Shown here piece after piece: positions 29,758-62,559 of a stretch of 64,000 nucleotides of DNA (the first letter of the stretch is position 1; every line of letters begins with the position of its first letter). Location of the stretch: positions 1-64,000 of the IMG/VR virus record IMGVR_UViG_3300015607_004925; one strand, 5' to 3'. Under the pieces are notes generated by a model. That model made no database searches. It was not told the origin of the DNA and saw only the letters and a list, made by a program, of their open reading frames with translations. The position numbers were made by a program, and so were the translations under genes. The DNA is from a virus (Duplodnaviria > Caudoviricetes).

Positions 29758-31770
29758 CTACAGCGTTTCTTTGAGCAGTGCGCCGGCGTGCGGTGCCGCT
29801 GATGGGACCACGCGCTTGAGTGCGGCCGGGATGCCGTGTACCAGCCCTTCAGTGACGGCTGTCCCGGCGAGCCCGACGCCAGGGGCCAGCGTGTCGACCG
29901 CATGTCCGATGAGCTTCCGCGCGCCGAACCCTTGCGGGTTGGCGGAGGGTGCCGCCGCGTCGAGGCCCTTGGCAACCCAGCCGCCCACGCGTCCCGGAAT
30001 CTTGGACGCCATGAAGTTGATGGCGCCGGTCGTGGCGGCGCCGACGCCGGGCACGGGCAGCGTCGGGTTCAGGGGTGCGTGCGGGTTCGCGTTGGCCATC
30101 GCCTGACCCAGATGCATGTTGAGGCTGTTGGTCTGGTTGCGGATGCCCGTGCCGATACGACGCAGCGCGTCCATGACGCCCGCGTCCTTCTCTTCGAACG
30201 CGACCTTGGGGACCGCGCCCGCGAGGCGCTTGGCGGCCATGATGCCCAGTGGGATGCTGGCGCCGAGCGCGAGCGTCTCGCCGGTCGAGAATGGGTTCTT
30301 GGCGTACGGTGTCCAACCTGCGCCGGTGGTGCGCTGGCCCGCATGCAATGACAGGAGCTTCTCGTGCCGCGAGAGGTCGTGTGCATCGATGCCGCGCTGC
30401 GCGAGTTGGTCGTCGAGCGCGTTGCCCCAGCCCTCGCGCGGGCGCAGTTTCATCTGCACGCCGTTGCCGAGGTCGATCACCTCGCCGCCGAGCGTGTCGA
30501 AGCCGAGGTCGGCGACACCGAGGGACTTGTTGAGGTCCATGGTGTCGCCGATGTACGCGCCGTGCCCGCGTTGCTGGAGCTGCTGCTTCAGGACCTCGGG
30601 GTCGCGGCGGATGTGGACCATCGCGTCGAACAGCTCGGGGTCGTAGGTGCGCCCGAGCATGTAGTGCTCCAGCACCTCGCCCGCGTGCGGTGCCCGCGGC
30701 ATCTTCTCGATGTTCCGCCCGAGCCCCACCGTCGAGTGGAGCGCGTTGCCGGGCAGCCAGTCGAGGCCGTAGTGCTTGACGCCGGCCTTCTGCTGGATCG
30801 CCTTGGCGAGCGTCGTCTTGCCCGAGCCCGGCGGCGCGTCGATCCCCATGCGGACGGAGGCGGGGTCCACGCCATGCGCGAGCAGTGCTTGGTGAATCGC
30901 GTCAGCTTGGTCGAGCGCTTCCTGCGGGATCACCCCGGCCTTGTCCCGCTCCTCGGTCGAGCCACCCTCCTGCATCGCGCGGATGCTGGCCTGGACGCCT
31001 GGCTTGCGCGCGAGCATGGCACCGCCGAGCGCGAGTGGGATGCCGGCGCCGGCGAGCGCGGGGAGGCCCGGGATCTTCGGCAGCGCCGAGCCCACCTTGC
31101 CCATCTGGAACCGCGCGCGCGGGAACTGGCGCGGCGCAGCAGATGGTGTTGGCGTTGCAGGTGTTGCGGCGTCGCGTGTCATCGCACGTGCACGCGAACT
31201 GCCTGGATTGGTAAGGGCGTGTGTCACTGCCGCCGGCGGTGTGTTTACCGGCAGTACAGACGTCGGTCCCGCCGGAACCTGGACAGGCAGAACCGCCGTA
31301 GGCCCTGCGGGGGCTCGTACTTGCGGTTCGTCAGCACGGTAGAGGGCACGCCGGAACTCGGCGGGGTCCCCAAAGGTCCGGTTGATCTGCTCATGCGTCG
31401 ACGGCTGGCCTGCCGGGGTCTGTGACGAGAGGCCGCGGCGGTCGAGCAGGCGGTTGAACCGATCCTCGGCCTTGGCGGACATCGCGTCAGAGGTATGCTC
31501 GTCGCTTGCCCACGGCATGCGCCGCGCCAGGTCCTGCATCTGTGCGCGTTGCGGTGTCATCGGCAGTTCGCCGCCGGTTGCGTGCTCCCGGAACATGTCA
31601 CCGAGCCCGTGCTGTAGGCGCGCCTGGGGCTGCGCGCGTATCGCCGTGAGCTTGTCGGACATGGCCGGCGAGAGCGCGCGGCCGCCGCGCGTCGCGGCGT
31701 TCTCGAGAGCACGCGCGTACGTGGCCCCGAGGATGGCGAGCTTGTGGCGGAGCGCAGGGCTCATCGGCAT
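29758..31770 (-). CDS. K-x-A-segmented protein with P-loop kinase domain
   Basis: GIDAPPGSGKTTLAK between KVG and KVA/KDA; Gly-rich hydrophobic segments. Confidence 0.75.
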   Translation of the reverse strand: MPMSPALRHKLAILGATYARALENAATRGGRALSPAMSDKLTAIRAQPQARLQHGLGDMFREHATGGELPMTPQRAQMQDLARRMPWASDEHTSDAMSAKAEDRFNRLLDRRGLSSQTPAGQPSTHEQINRTFGDPAEFRRALYRADEPQVRAPAGPTAVLPVQVPAGPTSVLPVNTPPAAVTHALTNPGSSRARAMTRDAATPATPTPSAAPRQFPRARFQMGKVGSALPKIPGLPALAGAGIPLALGGAMLARKPGVQASIRAMQEGGSTEERDKAGVIPQEALDQADAIHQALLAHGVDPASVRMGIDAPPGSGKTTLAKAIQQKAGVKHYGLDWLPGNALHSTVGLGRNIEKMPRAPHAGEVLEHYMLGRTYDPELFDAMVHIRRDPEVLKQQLQQRGHGAYIGDTMDLNKSLGVADLGFDTLGGEVIDLGNGVQMKLRPREGWGNALDDQLAQRGIDAHDLSRHEKLLSLHAGQRTTGAGWTPYAKNPFSTGETLALGASIPLGIMAAKRLAGAVPKVAFEEKDAGVMDALRRIGTGIRNQTNSLNMHLGQAMANANPHAPLNPTLPVPGVGAATTGAINFMASKIPGRVGGWVAKGLDAAAPSANPQGFGARKLIGHAVDTLAPGVGLAGTAVTEGLVHGIPAALKRVVPSAAPHAGALLKETL

Positions 31771-31774
31771 GGTG

Positions 31775-32074
31775 TTACCCGTGGAGCGCCGCGAGCGACG
31801 GCGGCGGCGTGGCCGGGTCGCCCGCGAGGGGCGGCTGACCGACGGTGGAACCGAGGGTGTCTGTCGGCGTCGGCGGTGACGTCGACAGCGGCGTTGTCCC
31901 GTCGAGGGCGGTCGGCACGGCGGCCGAGCCCTGCGCCATCGGCGGCGGTGCCGGCGGCACGTCCTTGCCGCTCTCGACGTCGGCCACGAACTGATCGACC
32001 TGTGTCGGCGGACCGAGTGCCAGCTTCTCGAGCGCCTTGGCGCAGCCCAGCTTGTACGCGGTGGCGAGCCTCAT
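31775..32074 (-). CDS. small putative internal head protein
   Basis: TAYKLGCAKALEKLA then Pro-rich tail. Confidence 0.65.
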   Translation of the reverse strand: MRLATAYKLGCAKALEKLALGPPTQVDQFVADVESGKDVPPAPPPMAQGSAAVPTALDGTTPLSTSPPTPTDTLGSTVGQPPLAGDPATPPPSLAALHG

Positions 32075-32622
32075 CACATCATCGCTCCTTGCAACGGCGC
32101 GTACACGAGGCGCTGGTTCTCGCGATCGTGCTGATTCTGCTGGTGCAGGCCGTACGCGAGCGCGCCAGCCGCGCCGAGCGCGCCGAGCGCGAGCGGGCGC
32201 TTCGCCGCACCCCATGCGCGCCCCGGCAACTCCTGCAGCTGTCCGGGCAGCGCGCGCGCCGCGGCCACGAGCGGGTGCGATGGCTTGGGCAGCGACACGA
32301 TCTGCGCGCCTTCGGGGGTCATCGGCGGCGGCGCCGGCGCATGCACGGGCGTGCGGACCCTGCTGTTCGGCGCCACGATGCGCGCGGTGGGCAGCGCCGC
32401 GACGGTCGCGGCGGCGGCCTTGACCACCTTCTCGAGTCCGGTGGCGAACTTCCGACCCTCGCCGAGGGCCGACTCGAGCGCGCGGCTCGTCTCGGAACGC
32501 ATCTTGTCGCCGAGCCCGGGCGTCGCGCGCGCGCTCGGGCGCGGCGCAGGCGCCTTCGGCGGGGGCTTGCTGGCGAAGCCTGGCCCAAGCGACGACATGA
32601 CCGCCGCGACCTTCGGGTCCAC
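32074..32622 (-). CDS. Gly-zipper putative virion protein
   Basis: PKVA; LALGALGAAGALAYG. Confidence 0.6.
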   Translation of the reverse strand: MDPKVAAVMSSLGPGFASKPPPKAPAPRPSARATPGLGDKMRSETSRALESALGEGRKFATGLEKVVKAAAATVAALPTARIVAPNSRVRTPVHAPAPPPMTPEGAQIVSLPKPSHPLVAAARALPGQLQELPGRAWGAAKRPLALGALGAAGALAYGLHQQNQHDRENQRLVYAPLQGAMM

Positions 32623-32624
32623 GG

Positions 32625-32990
32625 CTAGCCCACCGCGATGAAGAGGATCGACGCGGAGCCCGTGGTCGTGAGCAGCACCGCCGTCGGGAACGGCGTCGAC
32701 GGGTTGACCCACAGGAAGTAGCCGCCGACGGCGATCGGCCACGCATCCGCGCCGCCGTTGAACTTCACGGTGCACGAGCCTGAGAGCGCCTTGATCAGCA
32801 CGCCCTTCGCGCCTGGGCTCGCGAGAGTCCCGAGGTTGACCGCCTCGTCGGTGACCGCGCCCGCGTACGACCGGACGAAGTCGGCGCGGCCGGTATACGC
32901 CAGGCTGACCGTCAGGTCGACGGGCGCGGCGTTCGTTCCGTCCTCGAGAGGCAGCGAGGCTGCCCCAGCGACCTTGAAGTTCTGCGCCAT
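32625..32990 (-). CDS. putative structural protein
   Basis: CTATAAT 8 nt upstream; beta-rich. Confidence 0.6.
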   Translation of the reverse strand: MAQNFKVAGAASLPLEDGTNAAPVDLTVSLAYTGRADFVRSYAGAVTDEAVNLGTLASPGAKGVLIKALSGSCTVKFNGGADAWPIAVGGYFLWVNPSTPFPTAVLLTTTGSASILFIAVG

Positions 32991-33021
32991 ACCCTGGAAT
33001 TATAGGGGACGGTGCGAGATC

Positions 33022-33690
33022 TTACGTCGTGCGACGGTGGCCGCGGCTCAGGCCCATCACACCGAGCTTCGCGCGACCCGCGCGCATCATGCCGACTTGG
33101 ACCCATCCCTTGGCCGGGTCGTACTTCTGCGCGTAGCCGCCGGCACGGACTTCCCACGGGCCCTTGCACAGACCGAGGTGGTCGTAGCGTGTGTGCCCGT
33201 CTGGCTTGGGCGGCGGTTCCTGCCACGCGGGGTACTGGAAGTTCGACACGAGCACGTCGTCGATCGTGTACGTGTCCTGCTCGACGGGATCGCAGACCTC
33301 AGTCGCCCACCAGGTGCCCTGGTCATCTTGCGCCCCTCGCCGCAGCCATGGATCCGCAAGGGCCTCGAGGATCTCGTGAGACGCGGTCACGGTCCACGCC
33401 ACACCGTCTTGCGCATCCAGCTCCGGGAAGGTGAAGAGACACGGCAGGCCGGCGTCGGTCGTGTCGTGGAAGCCGAGGGCACCCTCGATCGTCGGTACCT
33501 TGCGCAGCTCGAGCCGCCATTCGTCATCGCGCGCGGGGTCCTGTGGTGTTGCCGCGCGGACCGTCGCGTCGACACCCCACACCGGGTAGAAGTGCTCGAG
33601 CACCTGGCGCTGCAACGCCGCGGCCGCCCGCACGATGTCCGCGTGCGTGACGTGCGTGTCGACGTTCACGATGACGACGCTGTTGCTCAC
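33022..33690 (-). CDS. zincin-like metalloprotease
   Basis: ALGFH...SHEILEALADP...EVCDPV. Confidence 0.75.
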   Translation of the reverse strand: MSNSVVIVNVDTHVTHADIVRAAAALQRQVLEHFYPVWGVDATVRAATPQDPARDDEWRLELRKVPTIEGALGFHDTTDAGLPCLFTFPELDAQDGVAWTVTASHEILEALADPWLRRGAQDDQGTWWATEVCDPVEQDTYTIDDVLVSNFQYPAWQEPPPKPDGHTRYDHLGLCKGPWEVRAGGYAQKYDPAKGWVQVGMMRAGRAKLGVMGLSRGHRRTT

Positions 33691-34079: not shown

Positions 34080-34091
34080 GACGAGGGCTCC

Positions 34092-34538: not shown

Positions 34539-34807
34539 CAGAATTCCGCCTTTCGTGGGACCGCGACGGATCCCTTCTCCGCCGGGCGATCACCGTGCGT
34601 ATGCACGTAGCCGGCTTTGTTCTTGAGTGACGAGCGGTGCATCGGGACGATGGTCCCGAAGATCGCGCCGCCGAGCCGCTCGTTGTCGGCGCTGACCTGT
34701 CCCCCACACGCAGGACATGTGGGCAGCGCCGCCTCTTCCTCTGACGTCATGTACAGGTGCTCGAAACGGTGACCGCACGAACACACGTACTCCTTCAGCT
34801 TGGGCAC
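34538..34807 (-). CDS. FmdB-type zinc-ribbon protein
   Basis: P.L.EYVCSCGHRFE...CPACG. Confidence 0.8.
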   Translation of the reverse strand: MPKLKEYVCSCGHRFEHLYMTSEEEAALPTCPACGGQVSADNERLGGAIFGTIVPMHRSSLKNKAGYVHTHGDRPAEKGSVAVPRKAEF

Positions 34808-36587: not shown

Positions 36588-36730
36588 CGCGTCGTCTTCT
36601 CCGCAAGTGCGCGCACGCGTGCGGCACGCAGGCGCTTCTTCTCCATGTCGATACGAACAAGGCGGCCATGTAGCTCGGCGAGCTTACCGAGCACGACCCC
36701 GATCGCCGGCTGACCTTGCCACTTAGTCAT
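36584..36730 (-). CDS. small basic protein (48 aa)
   Basis: overlaps both neighbours (MTKWQGQP...TTR). Confidence 0.5.
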   Translation of the reverse strand: MTKWQGQPAIGVVLGKLAELHGRLVRIDMEKKRLRAARVRALAEKTTR

Positions 36731-38129
36731 TGCGTACCTTCGTCGAGACGTATGGCACCTGGACGCCGACCTTCGCCGCGAAGACAGCGATCTTGGCCAT
36801 CACGGCCGCGAGCCCGATCGGATTCGACGGCACGAGGTTGCCGATCGCGCTCGAGAGGTCGCCGAGAAACGCGGCGAAGTCGATGAGGAACGTATCGAAC
36901 TTCGGGATCGGGTGTTGCCCGTTCGGTCCGAGGATGACTTGCGCGCCGTCGACCTTTGCCTGGCCCGTGGCCTCGAGCTTGGCGGCGGCGCGCGCGACGA
37001 GCGCGATGTCGCCGGTTGCAGAAGCCTTCCAGTCACCGTCGACGGCGTGCGTGTCATCATCGCCGATGCTCGTCGTGCGCTTGCCGGCGACCACCGCGGT
37101 CTGGTCGCCGCCGACGCCGTGCGTGTGATCGCTGCCGACGTACTGCGTAGCAGCTCCTGCCGTCGACCACGTTCCCGACCCGCCGATGCTCGTCGAGTGG
37201 TCGCCGTCGATGAGGTGCGCGTAGTTCCCCTTGATCGCGTGCGTCTCGTCACCGCCGACGGCGGTCGCGCGCGCACCGGCGATGTCGTGACGCTGTTCGG
37301 CTAGCCCGCCGGCGCCTGACGAGATGTCGACGCCGCCGTCGCCGTAGAGCTGGACGCGTCCGTCCGATCCGGCATGCAGGCGGAAGAGGATCTTGCCCTC
37401 GGGTTCGACGACCTTGAAGTCGAGCACGTCACCCGTCGCGCCAAGGTCAAGCTGGATCGTCCAGTGCTGCTCATCGCGCCCTGTCTGCGTGGTCTGGCTT
37501 GCACCTGCACGCAGCACGAAGGACGTGCGGCCTTGCTTGTTCTCCATCCGCCACTGTCCGAAGTCCGAGAAGCCGTCCATGACGCGCGCGACGTGCCGGA
37601 GCAGTCCTTGCGCGGCGAACGATTGCACCTGCGCGCTGGGCGCGCCGAGCAGCGACAGCCCGCCTTCGAGCACGGCGACGTGATTGCCGAGCGTGCCAAC
37701 CTGCGCCCAGTCGCCACCGCCCATATCCGTCGGTGCATGCGGCGGTCGGTAGTTGTTCGAGCCCTCGGTCGGCTGGGTCGCGTCGTCTTGACCAACGCCC
37801 GCGACACCAGTGAGCGTCGGCGCCGGGATCGCGGACTGTGCGGGTCCGACGAGGTCAAGGATGCCGATGATGACCGGCATGCCGAGGTCCCACGACACTA
37901 CGACCTGTGTGCCCGTTTGCAGGTGATCGAAGCTGCCTTGCGTGTGCCGCATCTGCGGCACGTCTTGCAGCGGTCGACCACTGTCTGTGCGTACCAGGGC
38001 TGTGTGTGTGCCCGAGTTGTACGCGATGACCGTGCCGATCTCCCAGTTCCGCCGTCCCGTCGGGCGATCGCGCGCGGCTACGCCTGCGCCAAGGTTGGCG
38101 GCGCCTCGCTTTTGAAGCGGATCGCTCAC
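36723..38129 (-). CDS. baseplate central spike (gp5/VgrG-like)
   Basis: N-terminal OB-like region; 8-residue VGGD.T..I.G beta-helix repeats. Confidence 0.8.
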   Translation of the reverse strand: MSDPLQKRGAANLGAGVAARDRPTGRRNWEIGTVIAYNSGTHTALVRTDSGRPLQDVPQMRHTQGSFDHLQTGTQVVVSWDLGMPVIIGILDLVGPAQSAIPAPTLTGVAGVGQDDATQPTEGSNNYRPPHAPTDMGGGDWAQVGTLGNHVAVLEGGLSLLGAPSAQVQSFAAQGLLRHVARVMDGFSDFGQWRMENKQGRTSFVLRAGASQTTQTGRDEQHWTIQLDLGATGDVLDFKVVEPEGKILFRLHAGSDGRVQLYGDGGVDISSGAGGLAEQRHDIAGARATAVGGDETHAIKGNYAHLIDGDHSTSIGGSGTWSTAGAATQYVGSDHTHGVGGDQTAVVAGKRTTSIGDDDTHAVDGDWKASATGDIALVARAAAKLEATGQAKVDGAQVILGPNGQHPIPKFDTFLIDFAAFLGDLSSAIGNLVPSNPIGLAAVMAKIAVFAAKVGVQVPYVSTKVRND

Positions 38130-39785: not shown

Positions 39786-40385
39786 TCAGGCTCCTTGTGT
39801 GCCGCGTGCGATCTCGAGGCCCTTGACGTTACCGATTGTAGCGCCGAGACCTGCGAGCAGGGTTGAAAGTGGGACGCCAAGTGGTCCCGTGACAGGATGC
39901 CCGACGAGCTTGTCGATGACGTGGCCGACGCCGTGGCCGACGAGGCCGCCGCCGAGCGTGCCGAGGCCCTGTCCCGCGACGTTGCGCGCGATCTCGCCGC
40001 CGGTCTGTTTACCGCGGACGCCCTCGACGACCGGCCACGCGAGGCCGCCGAGGTCGCCGCCGACGACGTCGCCGAAGTGACCTGCCATCTTCGGGCCGAC
40101 CATCTGCGCACCCGCAACCGCCCACGGTGGGATGTCGGTCATCGCGGCGTCGATGTTGTACGGCGCGCCCGGCGGGATGTTCCGCTCGGCCCGTTCCGCC
40201 TTCTCACGCAGGAGACCGCCGGTGACGCCGCCCGTGACGCCGCCAAGCAGTGCGCCGACGTCGGGCGACAGACCGATCCGTGGACCGAGCGTCTTACCGG
40301 CGAAGCCGCCGAGCGCCGGCCCCGCCACCGCCGGAAAAATGGCGGCGAGGCTCGCGCGCTTGATGAAGAAGCGTTCGACGGACAT
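39786..40385 (-). CDS. Gly-zipper K-x-A protein
   Basis: IKRA, PKMA; multiple GxxxG helices. Confidence 0.65.
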   Translation of the reverse strand: MSVERFFIKRASLAAIFPAVAGPALGGFAGKTLGPRIGLSPDVGALLGGVTGGVTGGLLREKAERAERNIPPGAPYNIDAAMTDIPPWAVAGAQMVGPKMAGHFGDVVGGDLGGLAWPVVEGVRGKQTGGEIARNVAGQGLGTLGGGLVGHGVGHVIDKLVGHPVTGPLGVPLSTLLAGLGATIGNVKGLEIARGTQGA

Positions 40386-41113
40386 CAGCCCATCATGCCC
40401 TGGGGCTGTGGGGGCTGCTGCATCTTCTGGCCGAGCGCGCCGCCAGCCATCGATGCGGCCTGGTCGAACGCGGCACCGCCGAGCCCGCCCGCGATGCGCG
40501 GCGCGACCTTGCCCGCGATGCCGCCGAGGGCTTTGCCTGCGACGCCGCGACCGAGCGCGCCGAGGCCCGCGCGCGCGAGCGTCGGGCCCGCGATCGCGCC
40601 GAGCATCGGCAGGAAGGCGACCTTGATGCCGAGCGCGCCGAGCGCGGCTTCGGCGCCGGCGGTGTAGTGGTCGGTGAGCGCGCCGTACTTGCCCGCATGT
40701 CCGTATATGAGCTTCTGTGCCTTGGGCCACAGATTGTAATCCATGCGGCTCAGTGCTTCGGCGGCGGCAGGTTGAGCAAGCGCCGCGGTATCGCGCGCGA
40801 CAGTGTCGATTCCGTGCAGTTGAGAACTGAGGTTTCCGTGCAGCCCGCCCACCCCGGCACCGATGACCGCGTCGCGAAGCGGATGCTCGTCGCCACTGAC
40901 CAGGCTGGCGAGTCCACCGACGCCCGCGCCGAGCGCGGCGCCACCGAGCGGCGAACGCATGAGCGCGCTCGCGTCGAACGCCAGCTTCTCCTCGCGGCCG
41001 TGGTTCTCGCGCGACACGACGATGTTTACGCCGACGCCGCCGTTCTCGCGAAGATGGTGCGAGGCACCTTTCACGAGGTCGGCGATGAACTTGTCGAAGA
41101 AGGCGTCGGACAC
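40385..41113 (-). CDS. Gly-zipper K-x-A protein
   Basis: EKLA, IKVA; HYTAGAEAALGALG. Confidence 0.65.
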   Translation of the reverse strand: MSDAFFDKFIADLVKGASHHLRENGGVGVNIVVSRENHGREEKLAFDASALMRSPLGGAALGAGVGGLASLVSGDEHPLRDAVIGAGVGGLHGNLSSQLHGIDTVARDTAALAQPAAAEALSRMDYNLWPKAQKLIYGHAGKYGALTDHYTAGAEAALGALGIKVAFLPMLGAIAGPTLARAGLGALGRGVAGKALGGIAGKVAPRIAGGLGGAAFDQAASMAGGALGQKMQQPPQPQGMMG

Positions 41114-46578: not shown

Positions 46579-46758
46579 CTACTTGCCGAGGGTCTTGAAC
46601 AGCTCGTTGAGTGGGTTGGCGGCGGCGGTCTTCGGAGCCTCGACGAGGCCGAGCGCCTGGGCCTCCTTGATGACCTCGTCGGTCGAGGTGTAGCCGACCG
46701 CTTCGAGGGCCTTCTGGACGCCGTAGTCGTGCGCGGTCTTCAGGTGCGTGTTCGACAT
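46579..46758 (-). CDS. small K-x-A protein (59 aa)
   Basis: MSNTHLKTAHDYGVQKALEAVG...KEA...KTA; CTATACT 6 nt upstream. Confidence 0.65.
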   Translation of the reverse strand: MSNTHLKTAHDYGVQKALEAVGYTSTDEVIKEAQALGLVEAPKTAAANPLNELFKTLGK

Positions 46759-46779: not shown

Positions 46780-47508
46780 CTACCCGATCACTTCCTGGCC
46801 GTACGAGCCGTCGGCACGGCCCGGCGCCATCCGGTCGTAGGTCGTGAAGTTGTCCCACAGCCAGTCGGGCATGCCGGCGCGCGCGGCGCTCGTGCCTTCC
46901 TGCTGCGCGGGGTATTGGACGCGCGCGGTGCCGTGGCTTTGCTCGGGCCCCTTCGGCTGCACGCCGGGCTCGGCGCCCATCGGGCCCGCGAGCTTGAGCT
47001 GCGCGAGCGCGGCGCGAGCGCCCGTTTCATAGGCCGTTTTCAGCGCTTTGGACGTTATGCTGCCTGTGTAAATGTTGTCAGGAAGACGCGGCAGTCCATC
47101 CATTCGACGTTCGTGTTGTTGGTAGTGATGGTCGCGCGTGAGTCCGACCTCTTGTCTACCGTTATACGTTTGAACTGCCGCACCCGGGTTCATGTTTACG
47201 TGATACGATGGACTGGCTTGTAGTTTGTTCCATACGCCTTGTGCGGCAGGTGAGACCGATACTCCACTTTGGAGTGTGCCGTTTGGTAAGCGGCGCATAG
47301 TTTCGCCATATAGCTTTCGGCCAAGACCCATTCCCCGAAATTCCGGGGCGAGTTCCGCGTGCGCTATTTCCTGTAGTCCATTACCTGCCTGCGACGGGCG
47401 CAGATGCATGTGGCCTGCAGGCCGAGCACCTACAAACGCTTCAAACCCTTCCACGCTGGGCACGAGACGAAACGCTTTGCGTAACCGTGAACCAGCCGAC
47501 TTGTTCAT
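46780..47508 (-). CDS. GNAT acetyltransferase fused to putative head-targeting segment
   Basis: LAPEFRGMGLGRKLY acetyl-CoA motif; KSA ... KTAYETGARAALAQLKLA. Confidence 0.75.
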   Translation of the reverse strand: MNKSAGSRLRKAFRLVPSVEGFEAFVGARPAGHMHLRPSQAGNGLQEIAHAELAPEFRGMGLGRKLYGETMRRLPNGTLQSGVSVSPAAQGVWNKLQASPSYHVNMNPGAAVQTYNGRQEVGLTRDHHYQQHERRMDGLPRLPDNIYTGSITSKALKTAYETGARAALAQLKLAGPMGAEPGVQPKGPEQSHGTARVQYPAQQEGTSAARAGMPDWLWDNFTTYDRMAPGRADGSYGQEVIG

Positions 47509-47984
47509 GAGTGATTGAACCTCGAGGTGTTGCGGTAGCCGGAGCCGAGCGTGTTGTACGCCGACTCCATGTTGTTCTGCGTCTTCACGCCGCGGGTCAG
47601 CTCGTCCCACTCGGCCTTGAGGCTCGCGGAGAGTTGCGCGTAGAGCTGCGCCTTGTCGTCGATGCCGATCGGCGCGATGTCGCCGTCCTGCACCGTCGCC
47701 TGGTTGCGTGCCTGGAGGAACGACTCGCTCATGAGCAGGAAGCGCGTCGTGCCGATGAGCAGGAGGTACTTCAGGTGCGGCGGAAACGTCTGCGGCGTGA
47801 AGTTGGTCTGCGGCGTGACCGCGTTGAAGCCCGACACCGCCATGTCCATCGCGAGGTTCAGCTCGTCGTCGGTGAACTGCACCGTGTCGAGGAGGATGTT
47901 CTTGTCCGCGCGATCGCGCATGAACATCCTCACCTGGTCCTTGGTGACGATGTTCGGGGTGGCGGGCGACGCGACGACCGGCAT
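47505..47984 (-). CDS. head-tail adaptor
   Basis: VR.FMRD....N.LL...QFTDDEL; position. Confidence 0.65.
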   Translation of the reverse strand: MPVVASPATPNIVTKDQVRMFMRDRADKNILLDTVQFTDDELNLAMDMAVSGFNAVTPQTNFTPQTFPPHLKYLLLIGTTRFLLMSESFLQARNQATVQDGDIAPIGIDDKAQLYAQLSASLKAEWDELTRGVKTQNNMESAYNTLGSGYRNTSRFNHS

Positions 47985-54432: not shown

Positions 54433-54455
54433 GACTTCCATATTGTAGGACGACA

Positions 54456-54540: not shown

Positions 54541-55479
54541 TCAGGCGAACGGGAAGTCGATACGCTGACCCGCGAGCGTGTTGCCGATGCCGATGCCCGG
54601 CACCGCGTAGGACCAGAACTCGATCATGTCGGCTTCCTGCTTGATGAACAGGGTCGCGTCCTGCAACAGGAAGAACACGCCGAGGTAGTTCTGCGGCGCG
54701 AAGATGTACGCCGAGCGACGGCTGCCGCCGGCGACGTCGTCGACGATCTCGCGCTTGATCGTCGAGACGACCGGGATGCCCCACAGCTTCTCCTCGGCCT
54801 CGATGCCGAGGTCGTAGTGGCGCGACGCGACGTCGTTGCCGACGCTGGTCGCCGGCAGGTCGAGCGCCTCGTAGTAGAGGCTCTTCGTCATCAGCATCTT
54901 GCCGATGGGCTGCTTGCGGTTGACGAGCGCCTGGAAGCCGAGCTTGAACGCCGACGAGTTGAACGACGCGGCCACCGTGCGCTGGGTGGCCAGCGCGAGT
55001 GCGATGATCGCGTTCCACGTGTCCGTGAACTTCTGGTCTTCCTGGTCCGCCATGTCCTTCACCGAGTTGTCGGAGAGGATCTTGCGGATGTCGTTCTGGT
55101 ACGTCATCAGCTCGAACTTGTTCTTGCTGAAGCGCTGCGACTCGGTCTTGCCGAAGAAGACCGAGAAGCGCTTGCCGCGGAACCACGTCCGCTGCGCCGA
55201 GCCGTTGAACGGCACGAACGTGGCGACGGAGTCCGGCTCCTTCTCGACGATCTTCTTCGGCTGGTCCGTGTTCTCGTCGCGGTCGATCTCGTCGTCCCCG
55301 AGCATCACGGGCTCGATGATCTCGCGCGCGAAGGACTCCTGGCGGAGCTTCTGGCGGATGAACGCCGTGCCCTCCGCTTCGGCTTCCTTCGTGCGACCGT
55401 CGTCGATCTTGCGCACGAAGTTCGAGTTGATGAACTGCGCGCTGACCTGCTGGGTCTGGGTCTTGTACGCCGTGGGCAT
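54541..55479 (-). CDS. major capsid protein
   Basis: GAGGAG SD, strongly biased codons, 312 aa, order protease-scaffold-cement-MCP. Confidence 0.85.
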   Translation of the reverse strand: MPTAYKTQTQQVSAQFINSNFVRKIDDGRTKEAEAEGTAFIRQKLRQESFAREIIEPVMLGDDEIDRDENTDQPKKIVEKEPDSVATFVPFNGSAQRTWFRGKRFSVFFGKTESQRFSKNKFELMTYQNDIRKILSDNSVKDMADQEDQKFTDTWNAIIALALATQRTVAASFNSSAFKLGFQALVNRKQPIGKMLMTKSLYYEALDLPATSVGNDVASRHYDLGIEAEEKLWGIPVVSTIKREIVDDVAGGSRRSAYIFAPQNYLGVFFLLQDATLFIKQEADMIEFWSYAVPGIGIGNTLAGQRIDFPFA

Positions 55480-56004: not shown

Positions 56005-56358
56005 CTACGAATTGATCCAGCTGAGGAACCGATCGTCGGCGGCGTCCGCAGCTTCCTTGGTGGTCTTCGGGGTCGTGTCTGGCTCCGGCGAAGTGCCGGC
56101 GCCGAGGGAGTCGAGGGTGCCCGCCTGCTTGACGAGCTGGCTCTCGATGTAGTCGAGCGCCGCGTCATCGGCCTTGGCGAGCTTCTGCCGGTCGACGTCA
56201 GACAGCTCCTCGCCGTTGGCGGCGAGGTGTGCCGTCGCGATCTTGTCGAGACGGGCCTTGCGCGCGGTCTCGACCGCGGCCGTCTTCTTGGACTCGTTCT
56301 CGTCGACGTAGTCCGCGGCTGCCTCGAGGACGGCGGCGAGCTTGTTCAGGTCAGCCAT
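56005..56358 (-). CDS. scaffold-like K-x-A protein
   Basis: KLA, KTA, KIA, KQA, KEA; C-terminal DRFLSWI. Confidence 0.65.
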   Translation of the reverse strand: MADLNKLAAVLEAAADYVDENESKKTAAVETARKARLDKIATAHLAANGEELSDVDRQKLAKADDAALDYIESQLVKQAGTLDSLGAGTSPEPDTTPKTTKEAADAADDRFLSWINS

Positions 56359-56506
56359 GACGCACCCCCAGCTTGCGGCTCAGCAGACCGAGTCCACTGG
56401 CTGCGATGAGGACGGACGCCGCCTTCTCGCGCTTCACGGACGCACGGCGCGCGGCCTCCTTGCGGAGGTCAGCGGCGAGCGCGCGAAGCATCTCGGAGTC
56501 CTTCAC
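56351..56506 (-). CDS. small K-x-A protein (51 aa)
   Basis: GGAGG SD, overlaps both neighbours. Confidence 0.55.
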   Translation of the reverse strand: MKDSEMLRALAADLRKEAARRASVKREKAASVLIAASGLGLLSRKLGVRHG

Positions 56507-56718
56507 AGGGCCTCCATGAGGTCGGCGTAGGTGATGTCGACGGGCGCGTTGCGCACTTCGTCGGCGAGCTTGCGGAGGTCGCGTGCGAGGTCAGTGCGCG
56601 GCGCCGCCGCCGCTTCCTTGACCGCACGCGCTTCGTCGGCACGGCGACGTGTCGCGGCGTTCGCCTCGGCGAGGACCTCGTCGACGACGAGGGAGAGGTG
56701 GTTGCGGGCGCGGCTCAC
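56503..56718 (-). CDS. small helical K-x-A protein
   Basis: GTGA overlaps. Confidence 0.6.
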   Translation of the reverse strand: MSRARNHLSLVVDEVLAEANAATRRRADEARAVKEAAAAPRTDLARDLRKLADEVRNAPVDITYADLMEAL

Positions 56719-56999
56719 GGCTGAACCGCCTGCATGGGATGCTGCGCCGCGTGGAGTGCGTCGATGATACGCGGGCCAGCGATGCCGGCCGCGACACCCG
56801 CGCCGAACGACGTGTTCCGTGCGCGGTTGCGCGCTTCTTCGTCGTGTGCGTGCGTGAGCAGCGCGCCGAGCGCGCCGCCACCGAGCGCCCCCGCACCGCC
56901 CGCGAGCAACGCCTTGACGAGCGCGGGGTTCGCGGCGGCCTTGACCTCTGCGGCCTGCTTGAGGCGCACGAGGACGTCGATGTTCACGACGGGGCTCAT
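56715..56999 (-). CDS. Gly-zipper K-x-A protein
   Basis: KQA, KAA; GGAGALGGGALG. Confidence 0.65.
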   Translation of the reverse strand: MSPVVNIDVLVRLKQAAEVKAAANPALVKALLAGGAGALGGGALGALLTHAHDEEARNRARNTSFGAGVAAGIAGPRIIDALHAAQHPMQAVQP

Positions 57000-57002
57000 G
57001 GG

Positions 57003-57584
57003 CTAGCGGCTCGCCGCCTCCACGAGCGCCTGGCCACGCTTGAAGCCCTCGACGAAGACGTCGCTGGCGAGCTTGTAGACCTGCGCCATCTGGTCGTTCC
57101 AGCCCTTGACGTAGGCGTCCTCGCCGAGCTTCTCGAGCTGAGCGATGGTCGTGGCGTAGCCCAGCTCCGCGGCCTCCTTGACGAGGTCCGGGTTCTCGGC
57201 GGCGAACTTCTCGAACGAGCCGTCGCTCGCGGTCTTCACCGGCGCGGGCTGCGCGGCAGCGACCTTGCGGGCGGCCTCGTCGTACTGCGCGGCACGCGCC
57301 ATGAAGCCGTCGCAGATCGCTGCGCCGTACAGCTGCGCCTCCTTGACGAGCGCCTCGTGCTCGGCCTTCGAGAGGTCGGCGGCGATCTTCGTCATGTCCT
57401 CGATCGGCGAGGTCTGGCTCGCCGTCTTGGTGGACGCGTCGGGCGCGGTCGCCTCTTTGAGCGCCTGCTTGAGGCGCTCGCCCGCGTCACTGGTGGGAGC
57501 AGTCGTCGACGGAGCGGGCGTCGCCGCCGCGGTCTTCGTCGTGGGCGCTGCGCCCATCCTGGTGAGTGCGTCTGAGAGCTTCAT
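57003..57584 (-). CDS. scaffolding-like protein
   Basis: helical, Ala-rich; 11 of 16 Lys are in K-x-A. Confidence 0.65.
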   Translation of the reverse strand: MKLSDALTRMGAAPTTKTAAATPAPSTTAPTSDAGERLKQALKEATAPDASTKTASQTSPIEDMTKIAADLSKAEHEALVKEAQLYGAAICDGFMARAAQYDEAARKVAAAQPAPVKTASDGSFEKFAAENPDLVKEAAELGYATTIAQLEKLGEDAYVKGWNDQMAQVYKLASDVFVEGFKRGQALVEAASR

Positions 57585-57645
57585 GGGTGCCGTCTCCGCT
57601 TCGGTGAAAATGATAGGGGGCTGGTTGGGAAAAAACAAAAAGATG

Positions 57646-59400
57646 TCACCGGCTAGCCAGGGCCACAGCGCCCAGTGCTTCCGCCACCGCGTCCATGTTC
57701 GTCGTCGAGGACGTCTTGACGTGCGAGAAGTCGATGGTCGGATGCGGCGTGTTCGCGCACTCGATCAGGTGAACGATCGACGAGAGCGATGCGCTCTTCA
57801 TCGTCAGCTCCGTGATGTCCGGGATCTCATATCCCTCGTCGGTGCGCATGGTGTCGCCAGGCCGCTTGCCGAGCGCGCCGGCGCCGAGCGCGCCGGCGCC
57901 GAGCGCGAGCGGTAGCTTGAAGCGGCGCATCCACGGGTACGCGGTGAGCGCCTTGTAGCCGCCGAGGAGTAGTGCGCTGCCGCCGAGCACCTTGCCCATG
58001 TGTGCGCGCGTGACCGCGTCCTGTGCGTCGATGGCCGCGCCGCGCGTCGTCTGGTACGGGCCCACGTTGAGCACGTCCGTCGTCGGCGCCGCGTCGTCGC
58101 GCATGTCGATGCCCTCGGGCACGAGGCGCCGGTACAGGTACTCGCCCATGTACGCGCGCTTGACGAACGCGCCGTCGAAGAACGTCGTCGCGTCGCGCGC
58201 GATCTTCTCCGCTTCGAGCACACCACTGTCGAGCACCTCGTCGAGCAGCTCGGGGCTGTCGGCGAACAGCTCGAGCGCGCGGCGCGACGCCGCCGCGACC
58301 TTCGCGACGAGTTCGTGCGTCAGCGCGACGCGCGCGCCCGCGAGCTTGTTCACCGCGAGCGGGATGAACTCGGCGTCCTTGAGCACGATGCCGCGCGCCG
58401 CCGCCGCGGACAGCGCCTCGCCGAGCGGCCACGCTGCGAGCTTGTCGACGTCGACGTTGATCGAACTCGCGAGCTTGCCGCGTGCGTGGTCGCGGAACTT
58501 GACGATGAGCGACTTCTCGTCGGGCGAGAGCGTGCTCGACGCGATCGGTTCGGCGCGAATCACCTTGTCGATCTCGGACAGCTTCTGCGCGGCCGCGGCC
58601 TTCGCCGCGAGCGCCTCGGACTCCGCGCCGAGATCCGCCGACAGCCGAATCTCGGGGACGTCGGCGACCTTCTTCAGCGTGTAGCCGGTGCGATCCGCCG
58701 GACGGAACACGCGCGAGATGTCGAAGAAGTCGGGCGACGGGTTGTGGACGTAGTCCTTGAACCCGTTCGCGTCGATCTGGTTCATCGCGAACTTGACGTG
58801 GTCGCAGTAGTCCGCGCGCGTCGGCGCCTGGTTGCCGCAGCGCGCGCAGACGTCGTACTTGATCCGACAGCCCATGCTGACGGGCACGAACTCGCCGTCG
58901 TTGGCGCGCTTGACCCATTCGGGGTCCTTCGCATTGTCGACGGAGACGAGCAGCTCCACGCGGTGCATGCGCGGGTTCCAGAACGCACGCTTCACGACGC
59001 CCGACGCCTTCGCGGGATCGCGGTTTGCGTGGTGTTGGAACGTGTGCGCGGGATTCGTCTCGAACGACTGGTAGTGCTTCGTCAGCTCCTGACCGGGCTC
59101 GATGAACCACCGCCGGCCCGACGACGCGAACTTGCCGCGCGCCGGCACGGGGCGCTCGGGGAAGCCATCGCCGTTGCGGTTCGGTCCGTACGTCTCCTCG
59201 GCGCCCATCGCGTTGAGCAGGAGGATCGTCTTGCCCGGCTCGGGCATGACGCTCTTGATGTAGTCAAGTGCTTCGCTCGCGTGCTTCGTGATGCGGCTGG
59301 TGTCGACGCGGCCACCGCCCCAGATGAGCACGGGCTGCACGGTCGCCTCGCCCGTCGGGAAGTACTCGTCCAGCTCGATCAGCTTCCTCATGCGAGCCAT
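57646..59400 (-). CDS. prohead (capsid maturation) protease with C-terminal extension
   Basis: NRNGDGF, HHAN.D, VSMGC....DVC..CG...YCDH, FFDIS.V..PAD. Confidence 0.8.
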   Translation of the reverse strand: MARMRKLIELDEYFPTGEATVQPVLIWGGGRVDTSRITKHASEALDYIKSVMPEPGKTILLLNAMGAEETYGPNRNGDGFPERPVPARGKFASSGRRWFIEPGQELTKHYQSFETNPAHTFQHHANRDPAKASGVVKRAFWNPRMHRVELLVSVDNAKDPEWVKRANDGEFVPVSMGCRIKYDVCARCGNQAPTRADYCDHVKFAMNQIDANGFKDYVHNPSPDFFDISRVFRPADRTGYTLKKVADVPEIRLSADLGAESEALAAKAAAAQKLSEIDKVIRAEPIASSTLSPDEKSLIVKFRDHARGKLASSINVDVDKLAAWPLGEALSAAAARGIVLKDAEFIPLAVNKLAGARVALTHELVAKVAAASRRALELFADSPELLDEVLDSGVLEAEKIARDATTFFDGAFVKRAYMGEYLYRRLVPEGIDMRDDAAPTTDVLNVGPYQTTRGAAIDAQDAVTRAHMGKVLGGSALLLGGYKALTAYPWMRRFKLPLALGAGALGAGALGKRPGDTMRTDEGYEIPDITELTMKSASLSSIVHLIECANTPHPTIDFSHVKTSSTTNMDAVAEALGAVALASR

Positions 59401-59927
59401 CCTCGCACGAGCCGCATCGAATCGCCGCGATGGACGACCAGCTGGACGAGCGCGGCGTGCTTGTGGCGTTCGTCGACGAGTTGCGCGACGCCGTCCTCGA
59501 GCAAGTCGTCAACCATGATCGCCGCGGCGATCTTCGTCGGGTCGTCGTTGCCGGCCGGCGCGGCCGCGGGGTGCGTGCCCCGGTTCGCCAAGAGCCCGCC
59601 GAGCGCCTGCATGCCGCCGACGCCGGCGGCGGTGAGCAGCGCCTGGTTGCGCGCGTCGCGCACGAGCGCCTCGCCCTGGTGACGCGCATCGCGCGCGAGC
59701 AGGTGGCCGACGCCGAGCGCGGGCAGGCCGAGGCCAACGCCCCAGCCCAGCCCCTTCTGCAGCGCGGAGAGCGCCGCCGGGTCGAGCGCAGCGCGCTTGA
59801 ACAGCCCGAACGCGGCGAAGTCAGCGAGCGCCTGGCGCTGACGTAGCTCGGCGGACGCCGGGCGCGCGCTCGCGACCTTCTCCGCGAAGAAGCGTGAGGT
59901 CTCGACGGCGCGGGCAACGTCGTTCAT
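59388..59927 (-). CDS. Gly-zipper K-x-A protein
   Basis: KVA, KRA, KIA. Confidence 0.65.
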   Translation of the reverse strand: MNDVARAVETSRFFAEKVASARPASAELRQRQALADFAAFGLFKRAALDPAALSALQKGLGWGVGLGLPALGVGHLLARDARHQGEALVRDARNQALLTAAGVGGMQALGGLLANRGTHPAAAPAGNDDPTKIAAAIMVDDLLEDGVAQLVDERHKHAALVQLVVHRGDSMRLVRGWLA

Positions 59928-59930
59928 GGC

Positions 59931-60380
59931 TCACGGCATCCCGCGCAGCGCGCCGGCGACTTCCTGGTTGAGCCCGCCCGGCAGTGCGCCGATGTCGCGG
60001 ATCGCGCCGCCCGCGCCGCCGAGCAGCGCGCCGATGCCCATCGACGGCAGCACGCTGCCCTGGTTCGGGTCGTTCGAGAGGAAGTGCGGGACCGCGGCGA
60101 TCGCAGCGCCACCGAGCGCCGGCATGACCGAGCGCTTGAGCAGTGCGGACAGTGCCGGGTTCTCGGCGATCTTCTCGCCGACGAGGGCGCCGTACGCCGA
60201 GATGCCGTCAGCGATCGCGCGCGCCTCCTTGCGCCGGAGCCACGCCTTCATGCCGACGAGGGCGACGGCCTCCTTGAGGCCCATCTCGGAGACGCCGGAC
60301 ATCGCGCCAGCGACCTTGTGGAGGCCTGCTGCGGCGACGGCGTGACGGACGGACGGCGGAACGAGATCGTCGAGGGTCAT
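59931..60380 (-). CDS. Gly-zipper K-x-A protein
   Basis: KVA, KEA, KIA; GIGALLGGAGG. Confidence 0.65.
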   Translation of the reverse strand: MTLDDLVPPSVRHAVAAAGLHKVAGAMSGVSEMGLKEAVALVGMKAWLRRKEARAIADGISAYGALVGEKIAENPALSALLKRSVMPALGGAAIAAVPHFLSNDPNQGSVLPSMGIGALLGGAGGAIRDIGALPGGLNQEVAGALRGMP

Positions 60381-61642
60381 TGGACACGGTCTCCGGGGTG
60401 GTGAGACATCAGTTCGTCGAGCACCGGGGCCACGCCACGCGGCACGGAGCGCTTGAGGGTGGACTCATTGGAGGGAAAATGTTCCATGGAAACGTAGGGC
60501 AGCCCGGCGGCGCCCGTTGCTACGTGGGGGTCCGGTCGGACGCCGCTGAACGTGGGAAAGCTCTCCGTTACCCCGTCGATGCGGCGCTTGTTGGGCGCGA
60601 CGGATGGCGTGGCACCTTGGAAGCGGCCGTCCGAAGCGTCAGGCGTATTCAGGTGTCCATGCAGCGCTCCGCCGAGCCCGCCGAGCGCGCCGCCAGTCAA
60701 CGCGCCGCGCAGCGCGCCGCCGCCGCGGTCGTCCTTGTCGGCCATCGCGCCCGAGATGCCGCCGACTGCGGCGCCGGCGAGCGCCGGCTTCGCCGCCGCC
60801 TGCAGCAACGCGTGCAGGTCGACTGCCTTCTTCTCGCCGGTCACCGCGCGCTCCGCGTCCGCGACGAGCTTGATCGACATGAAGTCTGGGCCCGAGCCCG
60901 ACGTGACGGCCTGGCGGAGGAACGACCGCACGGCGTTCTTGTCGGTCGAGAGGACCGGCGCGAAGCGCGACATCGTGTGGTAGGCCTCCATCAGCGTGGC
61001 GTCGTCGGCGCCGGCGAGCACCGGGTCGTTGCGCTTCAGATCGCCGATGATAGCATCGCGCGCGGCCTGGTCGCCGGCGTGACCCGCGGCCTCCATCGCC
61101 TTGTTCGCGATGTCGCGGAGTAGGCCGAAGCCCGCCTTGCCCGCCTCGCTCGAGAACGAGTCGAGCGCCTTGCGGCCGCCGAGCGAGAGCGCGTCCTGGC
61201 GCTGCCCGAACTCCTGGCCGAACATCTTGCGCTCGACGAGCTTGCTGAGGCCCGACGCGATGCCGCCGGCGGGAGCGCTGGCGATCTGGCCGAGCCCCTT
61301 GGACGCGAAATTCGCGGCCGCACCACCGGCATCCGCGACAGTCTTGCCCGTCGCCAGGTTCGCGCCCATGTTCTTGAGCGGACCGCCGACGTTCTTGCCC
61401 ATCGACTGCCACATCTGCGCGAGCGGCAACGCGAGCGGCAGCGGCAACGCCGCCATCTTGTACGGCGGCGTCGGATCGTGGTTCAGCTGCTGTTCGGTCG
61501 CGTGCGCCCGCTGCACTGCCTTGTGGACGATGCCGGGGATCATCGCCCCGACCGCGAGCGGCAGCATGACGCCGGCGCGCTTCTCGAGGTGGCGACGCAC
61601 GCCCTCACGGGCGGCGAGTTCGAGGACTTCGCTCAGCTGCAC
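60377..61642 (-). CDS. conserved head-region protein with Gly-zipper K-x-A extension
   Basis: DPVL...AY.T..RFAP.L.TD.NAVRSFLR; KRA, KMA, KKA. Confidence 0.65.
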   Translation of the reverse strand: MQLSEVLELAAREGVRRHLEKRAGVMLPLAVGAMIPGIVHKAVQRAHATEQQLNHDPTPPYKMAALPLPLALPLAQMWQSMGKNVGGPLKNMGANLATGKTVADAGGAAANFASKGLGQIASAPAGGIASGLSKLVERKMFGQEFGQRQDALSLGGRKALDSFSSEAGKAGFGLLRDIANKAMEAAGHAGDQAARDAIIGDLKRNDPVLAGADDATLMEAYHTMSRFAPVLSTDKNAVRSFLRQAVTSGSGPDFMSIKLVADAERAVTGEKKAVDLHALLQAAAKPALAGAAVGGISGAMADKDDRGGGALRGALTGGALGGLGGALHGHLNTPDASDGRFQGATPSVAPNKRRIDGVTESFPTFSGVRPDPHVATGAAGLPYVSMEHFPSNESTLKRSVPRGVAPVLDELMSHHPGDRVQ

Positions 61643-62559
61643 TGGCCCCTCACGTGTTCGATGCCCTGCTTGATGCGCGACGCTTCCGCCGCGATCTTCA
61701 CGAGCGTGGCGAACGTCCGGTTCGCTTCGGTGTCGTCGACGAGGTGGCGGTCCGCCAGCGCGGCCGTCTTGATGGTGGCTTCGTCGGGCGACGTGACGGG
61801 CCAGCCACGCGCCTCTTGCACCATCGCCAGGACGACACGGCCCGCGGAGCTGTCATGTAGCGCGAGCGCGTCCTTCTCGAACACGGCGGGGGTCGGTGCG
61901 CCGTGTGCGCGGCGGAGCTGGGTCTGGAGTGCGCTGAACGCGTCGTCGAACGCCAGCTCGGCCTGCTTGAGTTGGTCCTCGAGGACGTCTGCGAGCTTGC
62001 GCAGGCGGCGACCACGGAACGCGGCTTCCTTGGCCTCGTCCTTCTTCGCGGCTGACGGCGGCGCCTTCTTCGGCTTCTTGTCCGCGTCGTCCTTGGCCTT
62101 CTGTTTTTGGCCCTTGGGGAACGGGCCATCGTTGTCGTCGTCGATCGGAGCGTCGTCCTCGTCGCCGTCGCGGAGGTCCTGGGCCGCCGGCGGCGCGCCG
62201 TGCGCGCCCATCTCGTCGGGCAGCGACATCTCGTCGCCGTCGGGCTCCGCGTGCGGCAGCGCGCCGTCGTCAGGGTGCGCGCCGCCCATCTGGCCCATGA
62301 GCAGCTGCAGGATCTGGCGCGCGTCGATCGGGTCGAACTCGCTCGTCATGTCCGGCGTGCCCTGCGCCTTCTGCTGCTCCATGAGCCGCAGGAACGCCAT
62401 CGTGTTCGCGGAGTGCGCGAGCCGATCGATCTGGTCGGGGTTGAGCTGGCTCTGCTGCGCCTCGGCCGCCGCGACGTCGGCGAGCTTCTCGCCGCGCATG
62501 AAGCGGTCGACCACGCGCGTGGCCATCTTCTCGAAGTCCTGTTCTTGGTACGCGCGCAT
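61633..62559 (-). CDS. conserved head-region protein
   Basis: LNPDQI.RL...AN...F; KMA, KLA, KEA, KTA, KIA. Confidence 0.65.
   Translation of the reverse strand: MRAYQEQDFEKMATRVVDRFMRGEKLADVAAAEAQQSQLNPDQIDRLAHSANTMAFLRLMEQQKAQGTPDMTSEFDPIDARQILQLLMGQMGGAHPDDGALPHAEPDGDEMSLPDEMGAHGAPPAAQDLRDGDEDDAPIDDDNDGPFPKGQKQKAKDDADKKPKKAPPSAAKKDEAKEAAFRGRRLRKLADVLEDQLKQAELAFDDAFSALQTQLRRAHGAPTPAVFEKDALALHDSSAGRVVLAMVQEARGWPVTSPDEATIKTAALADRHLVDDTEANRTFATLVKIAAEASRIKQGIEHVRGQCS

Follow-up and report, generated by a model that had tools for sequence, protein, structure and literature searches.

The 64-kb window analysed here is the first part of the 184,915-bp record of an uncultured phage (IMGVR_UViG_3300015607_004925) with direct terminal repeats, and it encodes a group of head proteins that are punctuated by a three-residue motif, lysine, any residue, alanine (K-x-A). 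The ten genes of this head block (56005-62559) contain 60 K-x-A compared to 20.8 expected (z 10.3; at most 33 in 400 shuffles), and K-x-A ranks first among 1600 gapped residue pairs. One of the ten genes encodes a prohead protease. We consider it probable that this protease recognises K-x-A and cuts behind the Ala, and that in this way it processes the capsid protein, the scaffold and core proteins, and short N-terminal leaders.

Distribution of the motif

The genome has a GC content of about 67%. Gene calling by a codon-usage model resulted in 264 genes, which cover 88% of the genome and of which very few match Pfam or PHROG families. From position 29758 on, the minus strand carries a single long block of late genes, in which we distinguish the head block and a neck and tail block of 33 genes at 29758-55513. 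Expected motif numbers were obtained by shuffling each protein separately, so that its own Lys and Ala content was kept, and the 1600 residue pairs of the blind scan have zero to three residues between the two. This is the shuffle comparison that a preliminary description of the DNA had proposed as a check, and the enrichment in the head genes survives the composition matching. The same description had seen at least 15 motif-punctuated genes over 29758-62559. This is correct for the head genes but not for the neck and tail genes, which have no excess (35 K-x-A versus 32.5 expected, z 0.5, rank 511 of 1600), and the range was thus drawn far too wide. Counts near expectation were also obtained for the early genes (z 1.3) and for the remaining genome (z 0.4). 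The statement that the motif is sometimes K-x-G had to be given up, because K-x-G is depleted (8 versus 18.8 expected, z -2.7). In the shuffle test R-x-A, A-x-K, K-A, K-xx-A, E-x-A, and D-x-A are flat, and motifs with Glu at P1, the residue before a cut, are not enriched either (L-x-E 28 versus 20.2, z 1.8; A-x-E 34 versus 35.6, z -0.3). The excess is not an effect at the DNA level because all four Ala codons are used in the motif and AAR-NNN-GCN is found 60 times in frame but only twice out of frame.

The logo of 104 sites reads hydrophobic-x-K-x-A-(A/S/G), and the middle position accepts Pro, with K-P-A occurring three times. Of 14 head-block proteins, 13 have their first K-x-A among the initial 45 residues, compared to 56 of 250 other proteins, and by analogy such an N-terminal first site has the format of the capsid-targeting leaders of T4. 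As a positive control, the same blind scan was applied to T4 gp67, gp68, gp21, and gp22, where it put I-x-E in first and L-x-E in third place; the experimentally known rule of the T4 protease gp21 is I/L-x-E (cited in PMC12991175). In view of this control, a real cleavage code can be expected to saturate the core proteins with the motif of the protease, and the K-x-A signal found here is stronger than that of T4.

The prohead protease

The protease gene and its parts are the following (all on the minus strand; a bar within a motif marks the predicted cut).

57646-59391, minus strand: protease gene, 581 aa, starting with MRKLIEL as its homologues do; 15 K-x-A versus 4.6 expected
58663-59391, minus strand: prohead protease domain, residues 1-243, with H120/H121 at 59029-59034 and Ser172 at 58876-58878
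59278-59286, minus strand: K36-H-A38, followed by S39; K36, A38, and S39 are invariant in 25 homologues
58663-58671, minus strand: K241-V-A243, which closes the protease domain; invariant in 25 homologues
57646-58662, minus strand: C-terminal extension of about 338 aa, helical and scaffold-like, with a Gly/Ala/Leu-rich hydrophobic segment

The protein matches no Pfam family at E <= 0.01, and profile searches against the PDB gave no sequence match except designed coiled coils with 'KKIA' repeats. It is, however, matched by PHROG 18299 (head maturation protease) with an E-value of 2.6e-8, and tblastn finds proteins of Rhodococcus and Gordonia phages whose annotation is prohead or capsid maturation protease (about 1e-10). 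According to the structural model, the gene encodes a serine protease with the fold of T4 gp21 and herpesvirus assemblin. The AF2 model of residues 1-250, for which 70 diverse sequences were used, has a pLDDT of 88.5. VIA-align superimposes it on T4 gp21 (5jbl_A, Z 10.1, root-mean-square deviation 3.1 over 130 residues) and on the proteases of varicella-zoster virus (VZV; 1vzv_A, Z 9.2), human cytomegalovirus (HCMV; 8j3s_A, Z 6.8), and Kaposi's sarcoma-associated herpesvirus (Z 6.0), while the next unrelated matches are MCE domains with Z <= 6.5. In Foldseek searches against the PDB the proteases of Epstein-Barr virus and HCMV appear at the top, but with weak E-values (0.03 or worse). A fold of the whole 581-aa protein with 25 close homologues had a pLDDT of 58 in the catalytic domain and was set aside.

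H121, S172, and the cysteines C182, C185, and C196 are invariant in 70 diverse homologues, and H120 and H198 are conserved in at least 90% of them. The cysteines form a zinc-type CxxC...CxH insertion, which H198 completes. Alignment with hhalign places H120 on His85 and S172 on Ser140 of gp21, which are the catalytic residues of gp21, although this alignment has an E-value of only 0.046 and was made with a single sequence. Close relatives of the protease number at least 812 and are found on contigs of 140-196 kb, and the protease domain alone matches 3,401 clusters at 50% identity.

The protease core has a copy of the motif at each of its borders. The part that superimposes on gp21 and assemblin does not begin before residues 45-53, and K36-H-A38|S39 is predicted to be the site at which an N-terminal pro-peptide is cut off. 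At the other border, the preliminary description had noted a KKVA after the protease domain, and K241-V-A243 is indeed found exactly at the domain end. In nearly all of 94 representatives with 40-75% identity this site is part of the pattern RPAD-x6-KKVA, and the similarity between the sequences ends directly after the Ala. K241-V-A243 is therefore a predicted release site. The extension contains nine further K-x-A including the conserved K532-S-A534|S (57790-57798), which is located about 47 residues from the end. This C-proximal site recurs in other members as K-x-[A/S] after a P..TE motif, and in distant members it is often K-x-S. Taken together, the extensions of 90 diverse representatives contain 511 K-x-A versus 207 expected (z 24.6, rank 1), with more than the expected number in 85 of them, and K-x-S is enriched as well (z 7.3). 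The fusion layout and both motifs, K241-V-A243 and K532-S-A534|S, are present, and the tail has a putative role as scaffold.

Inteins, recognised by their Pfam Hint, LAGLIDADG, and intein-splicing domains, interrupt many homologues of the protease (e.g. P0006, P0012, P0040, P0088, P0112, P0122, and P0127), some of which contain two. Judged by the splits in the matches there are three insertion points, at about residue 122 next to H120/H121, at 175-177 (SMG|C, the bar here being the intein junction) next to Ser172, and at 191-197 next to Cys196.

Candidate scaffold and core proteins, and the capsid protein

The other carriers of the motif and the capsid gene are listed here; p438 and p318 are located beyond the window and are given in genome coordinates.

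57003-57584, minus strand: p193, 193 aa, encoded directly downstream of the protease; 11 K-x-A versus 3.6 expected, p <= 0.0002
56005-56358, minus strand: p117, 6 K-x-A sites in 117 aa
56351-56999, minus strand: p51, p71, and p94, small genes with 2 K-x-A each near the N-terminus
59388-60380, minus strand: p179 and p149, Gly/Ala/Leu-rich and hydrophobic; 4 K-x-A each versus 1.0 and 1.1 expected (p 0.008 and 0.013)
60377-62559, minus strand: p421 and p308; 5 K-x-A versus 3.4 and 9 versus 3.2 expected
63208-66048, minus strand, with the C-terminal part in the window (63208-64000): p946, 14 K-x-A versus 6.5 expected
66232-67548 of the genome: p438, 15 K-x-A versus 5.2 expected
97154-98110 of the genome, minus strand: p318, 13 K-x-A versus 2.5 expected
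46579-46758, minus strand: p59, 59 aa, among the neck and tail genes; 3 K-x-A versus 0.9 expected
54541-55479, minus strand: major capsid protein, 312 aa, 42% identical to gp226 of Salmonella phage Arash

In p193, 11 of the 16 lysines belong to K-x-A, as had been counted before, and it is a candidate scaffold or core protein. The orthologues in three relatives have 11, 9, and 10 sites, and the proteins encoded at the same position in Arash and Vibrio phage D181 have 8 and 10. BLASTP finds no significant similarity between p193 and the Arash protein following the protease (E 0.08), and both are dense in K-x-A. In all three close relatives five of the six p117 sites are kept as K-x-A, and the most distant of them has K-Q-S at the remaining one. 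By analogy to T4 gp22 the densest carriers, p193 with its 11 sites in 193 aa and p117 with 6 in 117 aa, resemble scaffold or core proteins made for shredding and not polyproteins of enzymes. A complex prediction of the protease core with p117 gave no answer (score 0.00) and was used neither for nor against the interaction.

The sites of p179 and p149 are conserved in the relatives, with varying middle residues. Gly/Ala/Leu-rich, glycine-zipper-like segments flanked by K-x-A are found in p94, p149, p179, p421, and the tail of the protease. That such segments are bounded by the motif had been described correctly, while a role of the segments in ejection would be an inference. The scanned K-x-A-dense head proteins match no Pfam or PHROG family except p318, which matches a PHROG of unknown function, and p946 has no match in the ESM Atlas. 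A homologue of p318 in a distant contig is 36% identical and has 11 K-x-A versus 2.8 expected, with some sites aligned and some moved, and p318 is likely an additional head-core or internal protein. The gene of this 318-aa protein is located 30 kb away from the head module. Apart from the head block, the only enriched gene within the window is that of p59, which has 4, 4, and 3 sites in the relatives.

The capsid protein has a single K-x-A, K31-E-A33 (55381-55389), compared to 1.9 expected. The earlier observation that the motif is not prominent in the capsid, sheath, and tube proteins agrees with this count and with the lack of enrichment in the tail proteins. K-E-A is kept in Arash gp226, near residue 30, and in three relatives, and K31-E-A33 is predicted to be the cut site of a capsid pro-peptide. 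The capsid gene is located 2.2 kb downstream of the protease gene, in an order that is syntenic with gp222-gp226 of Arash.

Directly after K-x-A there is often a shared helix, (H/Y)-x-x-G-x-x-x-A-L. The combination was found at 46579-46758 and 46780-47610 in the window and at 66232-67548, 67811-68266, and 70492-70932 of the genome, and examples are MFKHA|YVRGIQTAL, MLKQA|HARGAADAL, KTA|HDYGVQKAL, KTA|YETGARAAL, and KRA|YVLGGAAAL. Cutting may expose or remove this helix, which could serve in targeting or docking.

Conservation in related phages

K-x-A is enriched in the same genes of relatives with GC contents from 53 to 67%. Three metagenomic loci (L006-L008), whose proteases are 79, 61, and 58% identical, are syntenic and enriched in the same genes, and the enrichment ends at a 155-aa gene and the capsid gene. 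A further locus with a GC content of 53% and a protease of 37% identity (L005) repeats the arrangement gene for gene, with about 68 sites versus about 23 expected when summed over the genes. The nearest cultured relatives are Salmonella phage Arash (OQ632216) and Vibrio phage D181, whose protease domains are 42% identical. Both have a syntenic head module, and in a blind scan of its eight proteins K-x-A is the top pair (z 6.7 in Arash and 6.9 in D181).

The retention of sites was determined in two relatives with proteases of 58-61% identity. K..A pairs were retained in 58% of the cases compared to 21-40% for control pairs. The motif Ala is conserved in 74% compared to 45% for other Ala (p 5e-12), and the motif Lys in 63% compared to 50% (p 0.008), while the middle residue is conserved as often as the background (52% versus 51%). 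Aligned sites across four genomes read, for example, KTA/KLA/KEA/KNA and KMA/KTA/KIA/KVA. According to these comparisons, the Lys and the Ala are under selection, while the residue between them drifts.

Proposed maturation of the head

Our results comprise the motif statistics with their conservation, the fold, and the conserved His and Ser; from these we infer that K-x-A is cut, that the cut follows the Ala, and what becomes of the fragments. A substrate would have Lys at P3, any residue at P2, and Ala at P1, usually followed by Ala, Ser, or Gly and often preceded by a hydrophobic residue two positions before the Lys. The protease would be made as a fusion consisting of a pro-peptide ending in K-H-A|S, a core ending in K-K-V-A|, and the scaffold-like helical tail with its many sites. 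Inside the prohead it would free itself and then shred the dense core and scaffold proteins, namely p193, p117, its own tail, p438, and p318, which have a site every 15-30 residues. In addition, it would trim the capsid protein by about 33 residues and remove short N-terminal leaders from other proteins of the head module. Four observations favour a cut after the Ala: any residue, even Pro, is accepted in the middle, Ala and Ser interchange, small residues follow, and the conservation ends at the Ala of KKVA. In particular, Pro at the middle position means that this residue fits P2 better than P1'.

Several points weigh against this assignment. The virion proteome of Arash covers 80-100% of the orthologous module proteins (PMC10585845), and the pro-pieces are not obviously absent from it. 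The high coverage fits internal proteins that are retained in the head, but that virion preparation also contained many non-structural enzymes (PMC10585845). Among distant relatives, phage G (z 2.4) and Gordonia phage Stormageddon (z 2.1) have only a weak excess of K-x-A, and extending the code to these two phages was dropped for this reason. Homologous sequences are not independent of each other, so that z values calculated over the family are inflated. Finally, the case for cutting at K-x-A in this clade is made from sequence and a model, and from sequence the scissile bond cannot be fixed.

Only tentatively would we go further and suggest that a mostly uncultured clade of phages with genomes of about 140-200 kb (3,401 protease clusters, including Arash) cuts a herpesvirus-like Ala|Ser bond that is selected through a Lys at P3. 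In this doubtful but possible scenario the protease fusion, with its release site and its C-proximal maturation site, would be the bacterial counterpart of pUL26, and the glycine-zipper head proteins would be activated by the cut as membrane-inserting ejection proteins. If this were true, the contents of the mature head and the set of injected proteins could be read from sequence. The K-x-A rule itself can be tested at present, because Arash and the Vibrio phages are in culture.

Enzyme genes and alternative explanations

The preliminary description had proposed that K-x-A delimits a polyprotein cargo of enzymes and membrane-active peptides, encoded over the head, neck, and tail genes, which would be packaged, cut, and injected. 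Some observations are compatible with such a cargo, such as the glycine-zipper-like segments flanked by the motif and the detection of the orthologous Arash module proteins in virions. However, neither the neck and tail block nor the recognisable enzymes (the RNA polymerase subunits, the 2H esterase, and the kinase-like protein) have an excess, and the motif density therefore does not support an enzyme cargo. For example, the kinase that was said to be flanked by the motif (29758-31770) has only sub-threshold matches to AAA_17/18 and 3 K-x-A compared to 3.8 expected, and homologues of this 670-aa protein were not found in Arash, D181, or G001. The 2H phosphoesterase (9905-10756) has a solid Pfam match, but it is encoded outside of 29758-62559 and its 4 K-x-A compared to 2.2 expected are not significant (p 0.17). 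The genes of a multisubunit RNA polymerase (1449 and 593 aa) are located among the head genes at 68266-75857 of the genome, and the subunits contain 12 K-x-A versus 11.1 and 3 versus 4.4 expected. The GNAT supposed to be flanked by the motif (46780-47610) is a sub-threshold Pfam match (E 0.008; 16.9 bits compared to the cut-off of 20.7) with an atypical GC content at third codon positions (GC3), which is about 0.5 over about 180 codons versus about 0.9 in the genes of this genome. This open reading frame (ORF) has K-S-A near its start and K-T-A directly before the conserved YxxGxxxAL helix, which would suit a cargo, but the densest carriers contain no recognisable enzyme domain. We therefore regard the cargo explanation as unlikely. 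What stands of the proposed Lys-x-Ala maturation code is the code itself, now tied to the prohead protease, and not the release of enzymes or membrane-active peptides for injection.

Some further observations concern these genes. The region 46780-47505 has a GC content of 61% and joins the weak GNAT-like ORF to a native tail with high GC3; in the relatives this position is occupied by two small genes or an HNH gene, and the region is possibly a recent insertion or a wrong gene call. The RNA polymerase genes of Arash are likewise encoded among its head genes, and beta/beta' are among its most abundant virion proteins. Among the tail genes, a 242-aa protein (40385-41113, minus strand) matches Pfam Gly-zipper_YMGG (E 2e-7) and has 4 K-x-A versus 1.9 expected, which is not significant. 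The gene at 36723-38129 (minus strand) encodes the C-terminal repeat and the trimerisation domain of T4 gp5 and thus a tail-spike or cell-puncturing protein, and because of these gp5-type domains the tail block can be identified as the baseplate region of a contractile tail. Outside the head block the most over-represented pair is C-x-x-C (early genes, within 1-29600, z 10.5; rest of genome z 21.9), which fits a large family of small zinc-finger genes.

Instead of being cut, K-x-A could be a docking or assembly motif, for the protease, the inner surface of the capsid, or the portal, or a site of Lys modification. The statistics demonstrate selection on Lys and Ala but cannot separate binding from cutting. 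A docking motif would, however, not be expected to frame the protease core at both borders with the conservation stopping directly after the Ala, nor to be N-terminal in 13 of 14 head-block proteins. The P3-x-P1 format is shared with gp21, the phiKZ and SPN3US proteases (PMC10052503), and herpesvirus assemblin, and in the T4 control such saturation belongs to a cleavage code. Docking or modification without cutting is thus quite improbable.

If the motif is cut, the cut could also be trypsin-like and follow the Lys (K|x-A). Lys is the more distinctive of the two residues, and HK97-type proteases can cut after Lys. However, the residue after the Lys is free and can be Pro, the interchange of Ala and Ser at the C-proximal site and the enrichment of K-x-S (z 7.3) fit a small S1 pocket, and the relatives of this fold read P3-x-P1. 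Taking these points together, we consider a cut after the Lys very improbable.

A mere by-product of composition or helical periodicity might be suspected given a genome of 67% GC and head proteins with 14-24% Ala, but this can be dismissed, because the shuffles keep the composition of each protein, K-A, K-xx-A, A-x-K, and R-x-A are flat, other Ala-rich proteins (for example one of 1095 aa with 217 Ala) are not enriched, and the signal persists in L005 with its GC content of 53%, in Arash, and in D181.

Comparison with known systems

To our knowledge, cleavage rules of prohead proteases are known for very few phages, namely T4, phiKZ, and SPN3US. The probable rule of this protease, K-x-A cut after the Ala, would apply to a clade with thousands of metagenomic members and hardly any annotated genes, in which it would identify the scaffold and core proteins, the ends of the mature capsid and head proteins, and candidates for internal proteins. 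It also matters for bacterial defence. A phage prohead protease triggers sensors of the cyclic-oligonucleotide-based antiphage signalling system (CBASS) by cutting a loop that bears its motif (PMC12991175), and knowing the code predicts which CBASS sensors could detect these phages. In the literature we found no K-x-A or Lys-Ala prohead code, and the text of a paper on jumbo-phage capsids gives no cut sites (PMC5646251). For Arash and D181 there is no report of a cleavage code (PMC10585845), and the annotation of their proteases does not go beyond 'structural' or 'hypothetical' protein. We class the proposed specificity and the herpesvirus-like fusion layout as new, and the type of enzyme as known.

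The phages phiKZ and SPN3US, with the proteases gp175 and gp245, respectively, resemble the phage described here in being large myoviruses that encode a multisubunit RNA polymerase among their head genes. Many of their head proteins are processed at S/A/G-x-Glu, and their pro-peptides contain several copies of the motif (PMC10052503). They differ in having Glu at P1 instead of Ala and genomes of 240-280 kb instead of 185 kb, and there is no detectable sequence relation between them and this head module.

T4 gp21, whose substrates are gp22, gp67, gp68, IPI-III, gp23, and gp24, has the same fold, and its His and Ser align with those of the protease described here. Both enzymes would trim themselves at both ends, which is a prediction for the present one, and in both phages a P3-x-P1 motif saturates the core proteins and ends the N-terminal leaders. 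The motif is I/L-x-E in T4 and Lys-x-Ala here. In addition, the protease described here has no Pfam match, and gp21 has neither the zinc-type CxxC...CxH insertion nor the scaffold-like tail of 338 aa.

Herpesvirus assemblin (pUL26 of herpes simplex virus, pUL80a of HCMV, and ORF33 of VZV) shares the fold and the fusion of an N-terminal protease to a C-terminal scaffold-like region. There is a conserved site after the protease domain, which is K-K-V-A here, and another one near the C-terminus, which is K-S-A|S here. Herpesvirus proteases cut their release and maturation sites according to the rule (V/L/I)-x-Ala|Ser, and the sites described here likewise have a predicted Ala at P1 that is often followed by Ser at P1'. 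The differences are a hydrophobic P3 in herpesviruses compared to Lys here, the far higher number of sites per protein, the bacterial host, and that the cutting is predicted here. With Ala at P1 and a fusion of protease and scaffold, the enzyme would be closer in its behaviour to assemblin than any characterised phage protease, which bears on the shared ancestry of the two virus groups.

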